Source: Eledone cirrhosa (lineage: Eukaryota). Taken from it: DNA of 64,000 nucleotides. The stretch spans positions 27,714,001 to 27,778,000 of the forward strand of contig OZ024761.1 of NCBI GenBank assembly GCA_964016885.1. Direction: 5' to 3'. Positions within the stretch are counted from its first letter, which is position 1. Each line of letters opens with the position of its first letter. Under the pieces are notes generated by a model that saw only the letters and a list, made by a program, of their open reading frames with translations, had not been told where the DNA came from and made no database searches. Of the stretch, positions 9,783-25,947 are shown in pieces. The translations under genes and the position numbers were made by a program.

Positions 9783-10499
9783 CAGATAAATCTACCAATC
9801 AATGGTAGAGTCTAAACCGTATAAAGAACTCAATGTAATCCGTATGTAGATGTCGTGAAGCAAAGTTTAAAATACAAACATTTTTATCAACGATATAATT
9901 CAATTGGATACAGAGTCAAAATAAAAATATTAAAACAATGAAATTAAACACAAAATTGTCAATTCATAGTAAAACACATTATTTTACGATCGTTTCTGGA
10001 GGGTAGTCCTCTGCATGTTCATTCAATTATTGATCTATGTAAAATATATTACAAAATATCATAGTGAGAAAAAAATACATACATCTTCACCACCTGCCGT
10101 CTTCAGAAATAATGAGTTTTGTTTATTGAAGAATACAAAAACAAACATACATATGAATAGGTAAGTTTTTATAACCAGGTTGAAATTGACCATTGTTAAG
10201 AATGAAAAGAGGCCTTATAAATCCTTAAGTTTGGTGGTAGTAGATGAATAAATAGGCCATCAGTGGATAAGGTATCAAAAATCTTTTAAGAAAAGAAATG
10301 AAAGTTGCTAGTGTAAATGAGTTTAGGCATATTGTATATAAAATGTTGATGGTCAAAGAAGATTATGGTTGGAGGAAAAGGGCTACTGAGATTAGTGTGT
10401 TACATCAAGTAGAATAGGATAGAATAATCTTAAAGATTGTTCTATGCCATTTTGCTATAAATTAACAGTTTTGTATTTAATTTCATTGTTTTAATATTT
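9783..10499 (-). mobile_element. PLE-like insertion (family C) with inverted terminal fragment
   Basis: Tail shared with 23584-23770, 25618-25804 and 47220-47413; 10450-10499 is an inverted copy of 9926-9974. Confidence 0.7.
9977..10114 (-). ncRNA. Type I hammerhead ribozyme motif, family C (long stem II)
   Basis: CATTATTT-CTGAAGA-(103 nt)-GAAA-CGATCG-TA-AAATAATG; 8 bp perfect stem I. Confidence 0.8.
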
Positions 10500-13400
10500 C
10501 TCTCTCTCTCTCTCACTCTCTCTCTCTCTCTCTCTCTCTCTCTCTCTCTCTCTCTCTCTCTCTCTCTCTCTCTCTACATATATATATATACGTGTGTGTG
10601 TGTGTATTAAATCATAATTACACGAAACAAATTTGTATCTCTGTATATATTTATATATAACAGATTAGATTCGATAGAGAAAAACATCAATATATATGTA
10701 TATGTATATGTACAGATTGCTAAATTTAGAAAAGAAGACGGCAGCGACATAAAATTTAAAAACGACCAGTTATTCACTATATGTATAGACAGCAGTTTGG
10801 TGTCCCTCGTTTAAATATTCTCCGTATGAGTCAATAGATCTAAATAACGCATGGCCGCCATTTTATTTTTATTCAGTTATACTGCTATACAGTAATGCTC
10901 CGTCATTCAACTCTTTGTTGGCCCACAACCAGTGTGGTGGACATGTTTTCTTTGTCGAATATTTTACAGACGAGATAGAAATAGCGAGAGAAATACTGAC
11001 GGCAAAAAAATATACAGACTCAATAAAGGTGTATGTATATATGTACATATATATACATATATATATATATATATATATATATATATATATATATATATAT
11101 ATATATATATATATACACATTTATATATATATATATATATATATATATATATAAGTATATATATATATAGATATGTATGTATGTATGTATAATATATATA
11201 TGTATATATATATGTTTATATGTATATATATGTATATATATAAATATACATGTAAATATATATTTATATATGCATATATATGTGTATATATATATATGTA
11301 TATATATGCATGTATATGTGTGTATATATATGTATCTACATATGTATATATATATATATATATATATATATATATATATATATATACATATATCTATATA
11401 TGTATATATATATGTATATATATCTATACTATAGAGGAATATATATATATGAATAAGTTTATGTATATGTATCTATATATGTGTATGTATATATATATAT
11501 ATATATATATATATATATATATATATATATGTGTATATGTGTATATATATATAGGAATATAAATCTAAATATCTATATATGAATATATATATTATATATA
11601 TGTATATGTATATATATATATATATATATTATATATATATATATATATATATATATATATATATATATAGGAATATATGAATATATATATATATATATAT
11701 ATATATATATATATATATATATTTATATATATATTATGCGTAAAGATAGATATGAGTATAAAAATATGAAAACATAGTGTTATAAGATTAAACAGTTTCT
11801 GTAAGACAGGTATACATTCCAACAGGCATTCATATATGTAAGAATGTATATATATATGAATACATTATATTGTTTGTATGTTTATGAATATCTATATATA
11901 CCTATATATTTGTGTATGTGTACATATATATAATATATATATATTTGTGTATGTGTACATATATATATATATATATATATATATATATATATATATATAT
12001 ATATATATATATTTATATTTATACAGAGATGTATATATATATATTTATATTTATATACACATATATATATATTTATATATGGATGTGTATATATATATTT
12101 ACGTGTATATATATATATATATAAACGGAAAAAATGAAACGATTTTCATAATTATATATATATATATATATAATTTTTTATACATAGTTGTGTGTGTGTA
12201 TATATATGTATATATATATAAATATATACATATATATATATATATATATATATATATATATACAGACACACACACACATATATATACACACAGACATATA
12301 TATATGTATATATATATATATATATATATATATACACGTGTATACACATATTTAGGTAACATAGTAATGAATAGTTTGAAAGCTTTTATCCACTGTATAT
12401 ACATAGACAGTGTATGAATAGCTTATGAAGCTGTTTTAGTTGCATATACTCTTACATCATACATTTATATATATATGTATATATATATATATATATATAT
12501 ATATATATATATATATATATATATATATATATATAATATATATATATATATATATATGCATTTATTTGTGAGAAGAACCACATTGTATACATATACATAT
12601 GTGAATATAATATATATCTACATACACACACTCACACACACATATATATTATATATAATTACATACACACATATATACTTACATATATGCATATACATAT
12701 GTGAATATAATATATATGTACATACCACACACTCACACACACACACACATATATCTACATAATTACATACACACACATATACTTATATATATACATACGT
12801 AAATGTTTTTTTTATTTTTGAAGCTGACAACTCTAACAGGCTGTTGCTAATAAAATTTCATGACTCTACTTGTCAAATTCAACATACCTCCAGAAATATG
12901 TATGTATGTATGTATGTATGTATGTATATATATATATATGTGAGTGTGTTTGTATGTATGTGTGTATCTATATATGTATGTATGTATGTGTGAGTGTGTG
13001 TAGGTATGTATATATGCATATGTTAGTCTGTATGTATATATATATATGTGAGTGTGTTTGTATGTATGTGTGTATCTCTATATATGTATGTATGTATGTG
13101 TGAGTGTGTGTAGGTAGGTATGTATGTATGTATGCATATGTTAGTCTGTATGTACGTAGGTGTGAGTGTTTGTATGTGTATATGTATGTATATATGTATG
13201 TATGTATTTGTGAGTGTTTGTATGTATGTATGTGTGTTTTATAAATACGATAAGAATAAAAATAAAATGTTCATATAAACGATCTTATGCAAATTATTCC
13301 TGACTGAACATTGCAAAGATTTTCGACAAATTTGATTGCGGCCCAATATCCATAATTTTCCTGACCTCACTGTTGATGGTAACCTCTTTGAGTTGCTGTG

Positions 13401-13603
13401 GATGCATGGTATGCATGTATGGTTCAGTAACTCATGAGAAAGTCGTAGGTGCGCCATATTGACTTACATCGTTCCATGAACATTTTTAAACCCTTTTAAA
13501 ACCATTTTTAAACCCAGGTCTGAATATAGCGGATTTCTTCCAGAAAATAATATTGAATGAATGAATTGAAGCGAGAAGAAATATAGAGAAGAAGGTTCGA
13601 TCT

Positions 13604-13762
13604 TACTACTAAACTGGTGATTCTTTTTTTTTTTTATCGACCATGAATAGGTGAAAGGCTAAGTTGACCTCGGCGGGTTTGAATTCAGAGATCAAAGAAC
13701 TGAAACGAATACTGCAAAGCATTCTATCCGACGTTCTAAACGAATCTGCCTGTTAGCTGCCT
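13604..13762 (-). mobile_element. Old Nin-type tRNA SINE copy
   Basis: Diverged GAATTCAAACCCGCCGAGGTCAACTTAGCCTTTCACC..GGTCGATAAA on the minus strand. Confidence 0.7.
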
Positions 13763-23769: not shown

Positions 23770-23913
23770 TCATCATTTTACGATCGTTTCTAGGATATAT
23801 ATGTGTTAGAGTTGGTATGCATATTCTATAGATCTATGTACAATATTTATACAAACTATCAGAGGGAATATACATACCTACACATATATATATGCTGTCT
23901 TCAGAAATAATGA
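23770..23913 (-). ncRNA. Type I hammerhead ribozyme motif, family C (long stem II)
   Basis: TCATTATTT-CTGAAGA-(107 nt hairpin)-GAAA-CGATCG-TA-AAATGATGA. Confidence 0.85.
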
Positions 23914-25803
23914 TACATATAAATATATGTATATATATAGGCATATATATATATGTATTTATATATATATATAGGTATATATATATATATATATATATAT
24001 ATATATATATATATATATATATATATATATATATATATATATACCTATATATATATATATAAATACATATATATATATGCCTATATATATATATATATAA
24101 ATACATATATATATGCCTCTATATATATATATATATATATATATATATATATATATATATATATATATATATATATATATAAATATATATATATATACCT
24201 GTATATATATATATATATATAAATGTATATATATATACCTATATATGTATATATATATATAAATATATATATATATACCTATATATATATATATATATAT
24301 ATATATATATATATATATAAATATATATATATATATACCTATATATATATATAAATATATATATATACCTATATATATATATATATATATATATATATAT
24401 ATATATATAAAAAAAAATATATATATATATATATATATATATATATATAAATATATATATATATATATATATATATATATAAATATATATATATATATAT
24501 ATATATATATATATATATATAAATATATATATATATATATATATATATATATATATATATATATATATATATATATATACCTATATATATATATATATAT
24601 AAATATATATATACCTATATATATATATATAAATAAATATATATATACCTATATATATATATATATAAATATATATATATATACCTATATATATATAATT
24701 ATATATACCTATATATATATATTATATATATATATTTATATATACCTATATATATATATTATATATATATATTTATATATACCTATATATATATTATATA
24801 TATATATTTATATATACCTATATATATATAATTATATATACCTATATATATATATTATATATATATACCTATATATATATATTATATATATATACCTATA
24901 TATATATATTATATATATATAAATATATATATATATACATAAATATATATATATATATACATAAATATATATATATATATATACCTATAAATATATATAT
25001 ATATACCTATATATATATATATATATATATACCTATAAATATATATATATATACCTATATATATATATTATATATATATATATATATATATTTATATATA
25101 TATAGGTATATAATATATATAGGTATATATATATATATATTTATATATATATATATAATATATATAGGTATATATATATATATATTTATATATATTTACC
25201 TATATATATTATATATATATATATAAATATATATATATATATACCTATATATATTATATATATATATAAATATATATATATATATACCTATATATATTAT
25301 ATATATATATATATAAATATATATATATATATACCTATATATATTATATATATATATATAAATATATATATATATACCTATATATATTATATATATATAT
25401 ATATATATATATATATATATATATATATATATATATATATACCTATATATATTATATATATATATATATATATATATATATACCTATATATATTATATAT
25501 ATACATATAAATATATATATATATACCTATATATATTATATATATATATATAAATATATATATATATATATATATATATATATATATATATATATATATA
25601 TATATATACCTATATATAGATAAATCTACCAAAAGTTTACGGTAGTGTGCAATCCGTATGAAGAACTCAATGTAATCCGGATATCATGAAAAGAGAAGAT
25701 GCATTCAAAAACTATTTGCGGTGAAAATTAACGGAAAACAGAGTCAAGATAAATTAATAAAATAATGAATAAACAACGAAACAGTTCCTTATATTAAAAA
25801 AAT

Positions 25804-25947
25804 TCATCATTTTACGATCGTTTCTAGGATATATATGTGTTAGAGTTGGTATGCATATTCTATAGATCTATGTACAATATTTATACAAACTATCAGAGGG
25901 AATATACATACCTACACATATATATATGCTGTCTTCAGAAATAATGA
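25804..25947 (-). ncRNA. Type I hammerhead ribozyme motif, family C (duplicate)
   Basis: Identical to 23770-23913. Confidence 0.8.

Follow-up and report, generated by a model that had tools for sequence, protein, structure and literature searches.

A type I hammerhead motif with a predicted stem II domain of about 100 to 115 nucleotides in a retroelement family of Eledone cirrhosa with Hydra-type Penelope-like features

The stretch of DNA analysed here, called the window, comprises 64,000 nucleotides (nt) of the Eledone cirrhosa genome (GCA_964016885.1, contig OZ024761.1, positions 27,714,001 to 27,778,000 of the forward strand). It carries three copies of a candidate ribozyme of a putative Penelope-like retroelement (PLE), each in type I hammerhead order on the minus strand, at 9977-10114, 23770-23913, and 25804-25947. 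The order of elements is the same in all three: stem I (8-9 base pairs, bp), CUGAAGA, an insert of 103 or 107 nt, GAAA, CGAUCG, UA, and the second strand of stem I. A preliminary description had reported the shared CTGAAGA and GAAA-CGATCG-TA, a stem I of 8 or 9 bp, and inserts of 103 and 107 nt, all of which were confirmed in 9977-10114 and 23770-23913. The helices that it named within the inserts were found in the predicted folds of both copies, and the stem I pair change that it noted is real (U-A to U.G), with C-G as a third state in other subfamilies. As copy 3 is identical to copy 2 and lies 2,034 nt from it, its sequence most likely reflects a local duplication and not an independent example. 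The features are as follows.

9977..10114, minus strand: type I hammerhead of subfamily C1a (copy 1), from pattern and fold
10114-10107 and 9984-9977, minus strand: 5' and 3' strands of copy 1 stem I
10106-10100 and 9996-9993, minus strand: copy 1 core elements CUGAAGA and GAAA
10099-9997, minus strand: copy 1 stem II domain (103 nt); a palindromic stem III follows GAAA
Between 9985 and 9984, minus strand: predicted cut of copy 1, after GUA
10031..10061, minus strand: outer part of stem II, conserved in sequence, with a GAU/AUC helix, a small internal loop, and a UGUA/UACA hairpin, from the subfamily majorities
9783..9976, minus strand: copy 1 tail of the pseudo-long terminal repeat (pLTR), about 200 nt, terminating in (TA)n; long 3'-end class
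9931..9942, minus strand: copy 1 decoy strand, predicted partner of the stem I 3' strand (anti-hammerhead hairpin)
10115..10449, minus strand: remnant of a retroelement 3' untranslated region (UTR), 5'-truncated, with AATAAA at 10127-10122
10450..10501, plus strand: inverted 5' piece of the tail (short-end class), a typical Penelope inverted arm
23770..23913, minus strand: type I hammerhead of subfamily C2a (copy 2); the copy starts at stem I
23904-23898 and 23897-23791, minus strand: copy 2 core and stem II domain (107 nt)
Between 23779 and 23778, minus strand: predicted cut of copy 2
23584..23769, minus strand: copy 2 pLTR tail ending in (TA)n, with the decoy strand at 23736-23724
25618..25947, minus strand: copy 3, an identical duplicate of copy 2 (hammerhead 25804-25947 plus tail) in a TA-rich array
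47202..47500, no strand assigned: fourth, core-less family member, C1b-like, with two arms (a long-tail arm on the minus strand and a short-tail arm on the plus strand beginning at the 3' base of stem II)

The core has CUGANGA, GAAA, and an NUH triplet in the order expected of a type I hammerhead. Exact pattern searches of the 3.0-Gb genome returned 4,736 matches with inserts of 80-110 nt and GUA, 444 with inserts of 80-110 nt and GUU, and 6,078 with inserts of 111-120 nt and GUU, with zero matches to the reversed control in each case, giving at least 11,258 copies with an intact core, a number far above chance. Patterns for inserts of 55-85 nt returned 201 matches, compared with more than 11,000 for the long inserts. 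The 6,078 matches belong to the commonest subfamily, in which the arm measures 114-116 nt, a 10-nt duplication is fixed in the loop, and the triplet is GUU; its copies (loci L276-L365) look very young. Across the family the core is unchanged except at position 7, which is A, G, U, or C, and at the H17 base, the cleavage triplet being GUA or GUU, although an intact core was in part a condition of the searches. The usual G10.1-C11.1 pair is absent from the stem II base, which is C.A in 9 of 11 subfamilies and U-A in the other two. Natural U.U exceptions at this position are described (PMC3088659; File S2 of PMC8557442), so this base marks a variant and does not exclude hammerhead membership. In the predicted fold the terminal loop of stem II would be too distant from stem I for a tertiary contact between the two stems. 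The preliminary description had predicted that standard descriptors would miss such a motif, and this holds. Rfam gave no hammerhead match at E<=10 for copy 1 or copy 2 and no family at the gathering score in the whole window; among the 150 of 557 window matches listed, only AT-repeat microRNA noise appeared. The core search described in PMC8557442 permitted spacers of 7-17 nt.

We sorted 203 distinct copies into 11 subfamilies by diagnostic letters (one of 204 was dropped); 60 loci were the best matches to the window copies and the others came from the pattern lists. Contigs from sequencing runs of unspecified type also contain parts of the family and do not enter the evidence. The preliminary description held that the inserts are conserved in structure and not in sequence, a view that did not survive alignment. 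The inserts of copies 1 and 2 are 63% identical (shuffles 48+/-3%), their 200-nt tails 67%, and the 250 nt of UTR upstream about 57%. Comparison of the C1 with the C2 subfamily majorities gives 84-93% identity for the distal 30 nt, 55-65% for the middle helix, and 35-60% for the strands next to the core, and the distal motif is present in all 11 majorities and in 177 of the 203 copies. This distribution of sequence identity indicates that the long arm is homologous between copies, with a distal end conserved in sequence and only the core-proximal helix rewritten, yet still paired.

The identity of the host, overlooked in the preliminary description, emerged from longer copies. Upstream of the hammerhead these have a 3' UTR of 0.55-1.1 kb, preceded by an open reading frame (ORF) encoding reverse transcriptase (RT) and then a C-terminal GIY-YIG-type endonuclease. 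Hammerhead and tail follow this ORF in L061, L062, L066, and others, and the stretch of copy 1 from 10434 to 9765 is 92% identical over 675 nt to the ORF-bearing L061. This hammerhead and tail also precede the start codon at L013, L057, L184, L254, L320, and L365, as expected of an upstream pLTR in partial tandem. The Hydra clade is defined by DKT in place of DKG, an RWK-type motif, a CxCx5C linker, and CxxC and CxH beside E/N with no CCHH (PMC8557442). By motif reading the ORF pieces conform to this definition, with HSDKTG, RVRWR/RVCWR, CNCRxKxNCPL, CRLC/CGLC..E..LLNKR.E..CNH, and YIG; the RT resembles Hydra-1_Obim by eye, and the C1 and C2 endonucleases, behind copies 1 and 2, are 66% identical, a divergence across which the hammerhead core is retained apart from position 7 and the H17 base. 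Copies sit in (TA)n, often head-to-head, with the inverted arms, optional tail, and partly tandem pLTR of Penelope-like elements. L061, with an ORF region of ~3.05 kb, 0.55 kb of UTR, and the pLTR, exceeds the usual Hydra tendency of < 3 kb. Clade placement rests on motifs; Neptune and Naiad were considered and dropped, as domain order and motifs point to Hydra. We are highly confident, from these sequence features, that the motif is the pLTR hammerhead of a Hydra-type PLE. Further features of the element were also seen. Long Asn/Thr-rich low-complexity stretches lie between RT and endonuclease in the L061 ORF (3610-5503) and recall the N-rich inserts described for rotifer Penelopes (PMC3846280). 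About 230 nt upstream of the hammerhead, the C2 3' UTR (L041-L060) contains a decayed tandem duplicate of the UTR and the hammerhead 5' half, its core changed to CUGAGGU.

We then considered whether the stem II fold is selected. The majorities of all 11 subfamilies folded independently to one rod with z scores of -2.7 to -7.6, and the tail controls of C1a, C1b, C2a, and C2b gave -0.6 to +0.9. The rod opens with C.A or U-A at its base, followed by 2 bp and a C.C mismatch; beyond these lie a helix of 6-12 bp, an internal loop, a second helix of 6-13 bp, and the distal GAU/AUC, small loop, and UGUA/UACA hairpin. The C.C, at stem II position 4, does not vary among the 11 subfamilies. For single copies the insert z scores were -2.07 (copy 1) and -4.53 (copy 2), and copy 1 folds weakly on its own sequence (whole-motif z -0.6). 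Across the 203 copies, 19 of 33 stem II pairs are invariant. States fixed in subfamilies kept pairing in 13 of 20 cases, six of them by double changes, and private mutations kept it in 40 of 144, none double (Fisher p=0.0017); these counts depend on a structure-anchored register that we set ourselves and on related subfamilies, whose events are not independent. Several pairs run through an A-U, G.U, G-C series. Sixteen natural copies were 98.2% paired (slid controls 23-58%), with a covariation score reached by 0 of 500 shuffles. The 114-116-nt subfamily, found after the structure had been set (35 copies), adopts the same rod with a longer middle helix (z -6.2). The proposal of selection on the fold made in the preliminary description is thereby supported for replicating lineages: the fixed and private changes, with the predicted fold of the later subfamily, make selection on stem II pairing at that level quite probable.

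It is unlikely that the long stem II is instead a tolerated neutral expansion in which RT slippage and template switching mend quasi-palindromes and selection acts only on the closing base. Such a process would explain the AU-repeat helices, the span of stem II domain lengths in the genome from 12 to > 110 nt, the 10-nt loop duplication fixed in the commonest subfamily, and the seven fixed pair breaks. However, template switching would perfect the C.A base, the C.C at position 4, and the internal loops, all of which are retained. G.U intermediates at four pairs, a distal motif far better conserved than the proximal strands, and the rarity of 55-85-nt inserts also argue against it.

An older set of hammerheads, group D (L366-L395, L101-L103), has a stem II of 85-112 nt, the same stem III, and a similar stem I; by eye it has AATAAA and TATA-like boxes ~30 nt upstream of the A of TCATT. 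The majorities of its 93-102-nt arms fold with z -3.5 and -3.8. Tail motifs are common to one D copy and family C, and an upstream endonuclease could be tied to no D copy. A covariance model built from the C insert, with only 8 pairs, picked up L141 and L148, both C3 copies, at E 1.5e-3 and 1.7e-4, and none of the hammerheads of group D (best E 1.2). Of 35 old related copies, 7 carry the distal motif (mean 3.3 and maximum 6 in shuffles), always at insert position 29-33, and two of the seven are C3. This C3 relative (L141, L148) retains the distal motif, and the L141 endonuclease is 58-66% identical to that of C1. These sequence comparisons suggest that the D arm is homologous to the C arm, and length and fold without sequence likeness may hold between C and D.

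The ends of the copies were used to read the likely RNA template. In the first 90 of 5,089 copies, anchored on a 25-nt tail word only, 33 begin within -14..+3 of the core, a pile-up at the first bases of stem I with its mode at -7, the A of TCATT. One of the 90 begins within 5 nt of the predicted cut site; the other 5' ends lie within stems II-III (12), in the tail (13), or further upstream (31). An untemplated G at a junction is the mark of a copied cap. The base preceding the -7 junction is G in 17 of 54 cases (background 18%, p=0.012), and in 17 of 40 (p=3e-4) after removal by eye of 14 junctions with microhomology, 12 of which join another repeat's end and two of which are fold-backs. These 12 share one partner, the 3' end of a single other repeat, perhaps a short interspersed nuclear element tail serving as target or reached by a template jump (loci L076, L082, L083, L094, L150, L228, L229, L238, L036, L017, and L220). 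Two other sources of the pile-up were set aside: a fold-back at stem I, whose expected junction occurs in only 2 of 54, and RT stalling at the long helix, as only about 3 of 90 ends fall at its 3' base. On this evidence we lean toward a capped RNA start at -7.

Two rival explanations bear on this start. The -7 end could belong to the downstream fragment left when an RNA is cleaved for polyadenylation at the conserved AATAAA. In C1, C2, and many D copies this signal precedes a CA at -8/-7 by ~10 nt, and a GU-rich stretch follows. The extra G at junctions suggests a cap instead, and the spacing is short for a poly(A) site (usual range about 10-30 nt), which leaves this origin quite improbable. 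Alternatively, the insert could be kept mainly as DNA, as an internal RNA polymerase II (Pol II) promoter with an initiator (Inr) at -7 and downstream elements in stem II, its fold serving to let the ribozyme tolerate it. The 5' ends at the A of TCATT with their extra G fit this proposal, as do the TATA-like boxes of group D and an AGACGT at +28 in C1 that resembles a downstream promoter element (DPE); Penelope has an internal promoter with RGACGTGY (PMC2377424). However, the C2 subfamilies, without the +28 match, are the most abundant, and the double compensatory changes indicate pairing in RNA. We regard a role mainly as DNA as rather unlikely, although a promoter function is compatible with the explanation we prefer, selection on RNA pairing, and the two are not exclusive.

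The 3' ends are bimodal relative to the cut site, at ~+60 in 77 of 203 copies and at ~+200 in 80 of 203. Together with the 5' pile-up at -7 and the rarity of cut-site ends, this fits what is described for Poseidon PAc, the internal promoter of Penelope, and the Inr-like sequence carried by rotifer pLTRs (PMC3846280). Most sampled copies are short and non-coding, which raises the question of whether a non-LTR retrozyme family, spreading through circular RNA independently of the coding element's ends, accounts for the solo 330-nt units; retrozymes are described as deriving from PLE pLTRs (bioRxiv 10.64898/2026.07.22.740005). This is very improbable, since the solo-unit sequence is contiguous with the RT-endonuclease ORF on both sides, no tandem monomer arrays of the hammerhead-bounded non-coding kind were seen, and only the single copy noted above begins at the cut site.

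Stems I and II are backed by folding and covariation. Once 60 nt of tail are added, stem I is outcompeted in silico: in ViennaRNA its probability is <=0.02 in four of four contexts, one of which also leaves little of the proximal stem II helix. The preliminary description had named a fold that fails to bring CUGAAGA next to GAAA as telling against its reading, and with the tail attached this failure is partly seen. Stem I loses to a sequence at ~+45..+57 that closely resembles its 5' strand and takes that strand's place opposite the 3' strand. This decoy helix is predicted in all 13 long-stem groups, comprising the 11 C subfamilies and the two D groups, and in none of four short-stem families; 1/300 to 24/300 shuffles match it per group, and the groups are not independent. 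In an RNA starting at -7 the 7-nt stem I is worth -2 to -4 kcal/mol and the decoy -7 to -11 kcal/mol. The short 3'-end class terminates ~8 nt past the decoy strand. Stem III has 2 bp in the monomer or forms an 8-bp palindromic duplex between two hammerheads (-10.0 kcal/mol). That the decoy acts as a functional switch is conceivable from these models but doubtful. The pile-up of 5' ends at stem I, the near absence of cut-site ends, and the decoy competing for stem I together imply that the element's RNA template is probably uncut and capped.

Taken together, the explanation we consider likely is that the motif is a pLTR type I hammerhead of a PLE belonging, by motifs, to the Hydra clade, that its predicted stem II rod of ~100-115 nt is kept by selection on pairing, and that the element is copied from uncut RNA starting at the hammerhead. 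Pol II would start at the A of TCATT, the first base of the 7-bp stem I, RT would prime internally at two tail sites, as in Poseidon PAc, and run-off to the capped end would yield head-to-head pairs as well as the solo 330-nt copies, which number in the thousands. The long stem II may act as a rigid spacer that brings CUGANGA next to GAAA and holds the core halves together, and the invariant distal loop is probably a protein- or promoter-recognition element. For cleavage, two hammerheads would have to pair through the 8-nt palindrome and stem I would have to win against the decoy strand, which makes a slow or protein-gated reaction likely; its role would be to reduce tandem transcripts to unit length and not to make every template.

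Several observations weigh against this explanation. For the fold, 7 of 20 fixed stem II states disrupt a pair, the asymmetry between G.U and A.C (6:1 fixed, 35:34 private) is not significant (p=0.12), and a large part of the C2 helix consists of AU repeats, which are self-complementary and open to expansion by slippage. The alignment and RNAalifold check proposed in the preliminary description succeeded only in part: run blind with MAFFT on 22 copies, it recovered the distal 8 bp and not the rest of the rod. The analyst-set register of the pair counts belongs here as well, as does the loss of the copy 1 proximal helix with 60 nt of upstream context. For the ribozyme, C.A or U-A stands where G10.1-C11.1 is usual, reaching the active fold as a monomer costs 3.0-3.4 kcal/mol relative to the minimum, and each decoy p value is modest in a U-rich tail. 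For the RNA start, the DPE-like AGACGT occurs in C1 only and was spotted post hoc, and the AATAAA provides a rival origin of the -7 end. For the host, Pfam searches with seven ORF pieces (C1/C2) gave no real match to this element.

A more tentative extension, which we think improbable though coherent with the models, is that long-stem Hydra hammerheads form a protein-gated switch at the RNA start. The 100-nt arm would delay and weaken stem I, the decoy would capture its 3' side and so keep the capped template uncut, the distal loop would dock the RT-endonuclease, and the first priming site would lie at the decoy foot, such that ribozyme silencing and the start of reverse transcription would be one coupled structure in more than one diverged lineage.

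The window contains other type I hammerheads, with a stem II of 12-36 nt, at 7007-7077, 15713-15819, 16223-16282, 20547-20607, 21965-22007, 36044-36114, 44263-44328, 47018-47068, and 55327-55377. The one at 15713-15819 is a head-to-head pair joined at stem I, and a family with a 31-nt stem II shares the C.C at stem II position 4. Long near-perfect hairpins at 4822-4937 and 44258-44418 have microRNA-like Rfam scores; as the latter overlaps a hammerhead and inverted arm, both are probably inverted Penelope ends. Unrelated mobile elements comprise a long interspersed nuclear element (endonuclease and RT) at 17176-19251, a zf-RVT piece at 61372-62391, and a Mos1/mariner-type transposase remnant at 31751-33140.

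The motif is real and occurs in very many copies. It varies the structure of a ribozyme already described, in a retroelement clade also already described, and the surprise is limited accordingly. The more than 11,000 copies are natural trials that make it possible to test directly what PLE hammerheads do; the family offers a readable RNA start, two priming sites, a nearly unused cut site, and a competing helix. Because a long stem II hides hammerheads from descriptor and Rfam searches, ribozyme counts may be underestimates, as may statements that a PLE clade lacks a hammerhead. The literature searched contained no report of a 100-nt PLE stem II; Lunse et al. 2017 and the supplement of PMC4209133 were outside its scope and could show long variants.

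The closest known systems are Hydra-1_Obim and the Hydra PLEs, which, as described by Craig et al. 2021 (PMC8557442), share the RT followed by a C-terminal GIY-YIG, the DKT, RW-type, CxCx5C, CxxC, and CxH motifs, (TA)n targets, and type I hammerheads 100-200 nt from the 3' end with a palindromic stem III. A non-canonical stem II base is common to both and is often U.U in the published Hydra PLEs (PMC8557442). The Eledone element differs in its Asn/Thr-rich ORF stretches and its size of > 3 kb. It differs further in that the Hydra rows of File S2 of that paper give a stem II of 3-7 bp with loops of 3-10 nt, compared with a domain of 99-116 nt and >= 30 bp here; the longest stem II domain in that file, ~50 nt, belongs to plant PLE-X elements, and a text search of the supplement found neither of two short motifs of the Eledone family. 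The minimal PLE hammerheads of Cervera and de la Pena 2014 (PMC4209133) likewise are type I, lie in pLTRs, and have a palindromic helix III, a dimer model, low activity (activity is only predicted here), and nearby opposite-strand pairs. What is termed a larger than usual helix II in that work is 6-8 bp with G10.1-C11.1 conserved, and a 2026 report (PMC13725137) calls the same 6-8 bp slightly longer than usual; the Eledone helix is roughly fivefold longer, with C.A at its opening. Poseidon PAc of Anolis, as described by Frangieh et al. 2024 (PMC11167929), shares two internal RT start sites that create an optional tail, AT-rich targets, a main template of uncut RNA (inferred in Eledone), and the absence of cut-site ends (1 of 90 in Eledone), and its hammerhead needs protein assistance. 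Its ORF starts inside the hammerhead and its tail is 30-40 nt, whereas the Eledone hammerhead lies ~300 nt before the ATG, the tail step is ~140 nt, and the decoy helix ends just before the first site. Finally, the discontinuous Clec2 hammerhead (PMC6155905) is also a natural ribozyme with a very long inserted arm that descriptors miss, but it is type III, has its insertion in helix I, and resides in a host mRNA.

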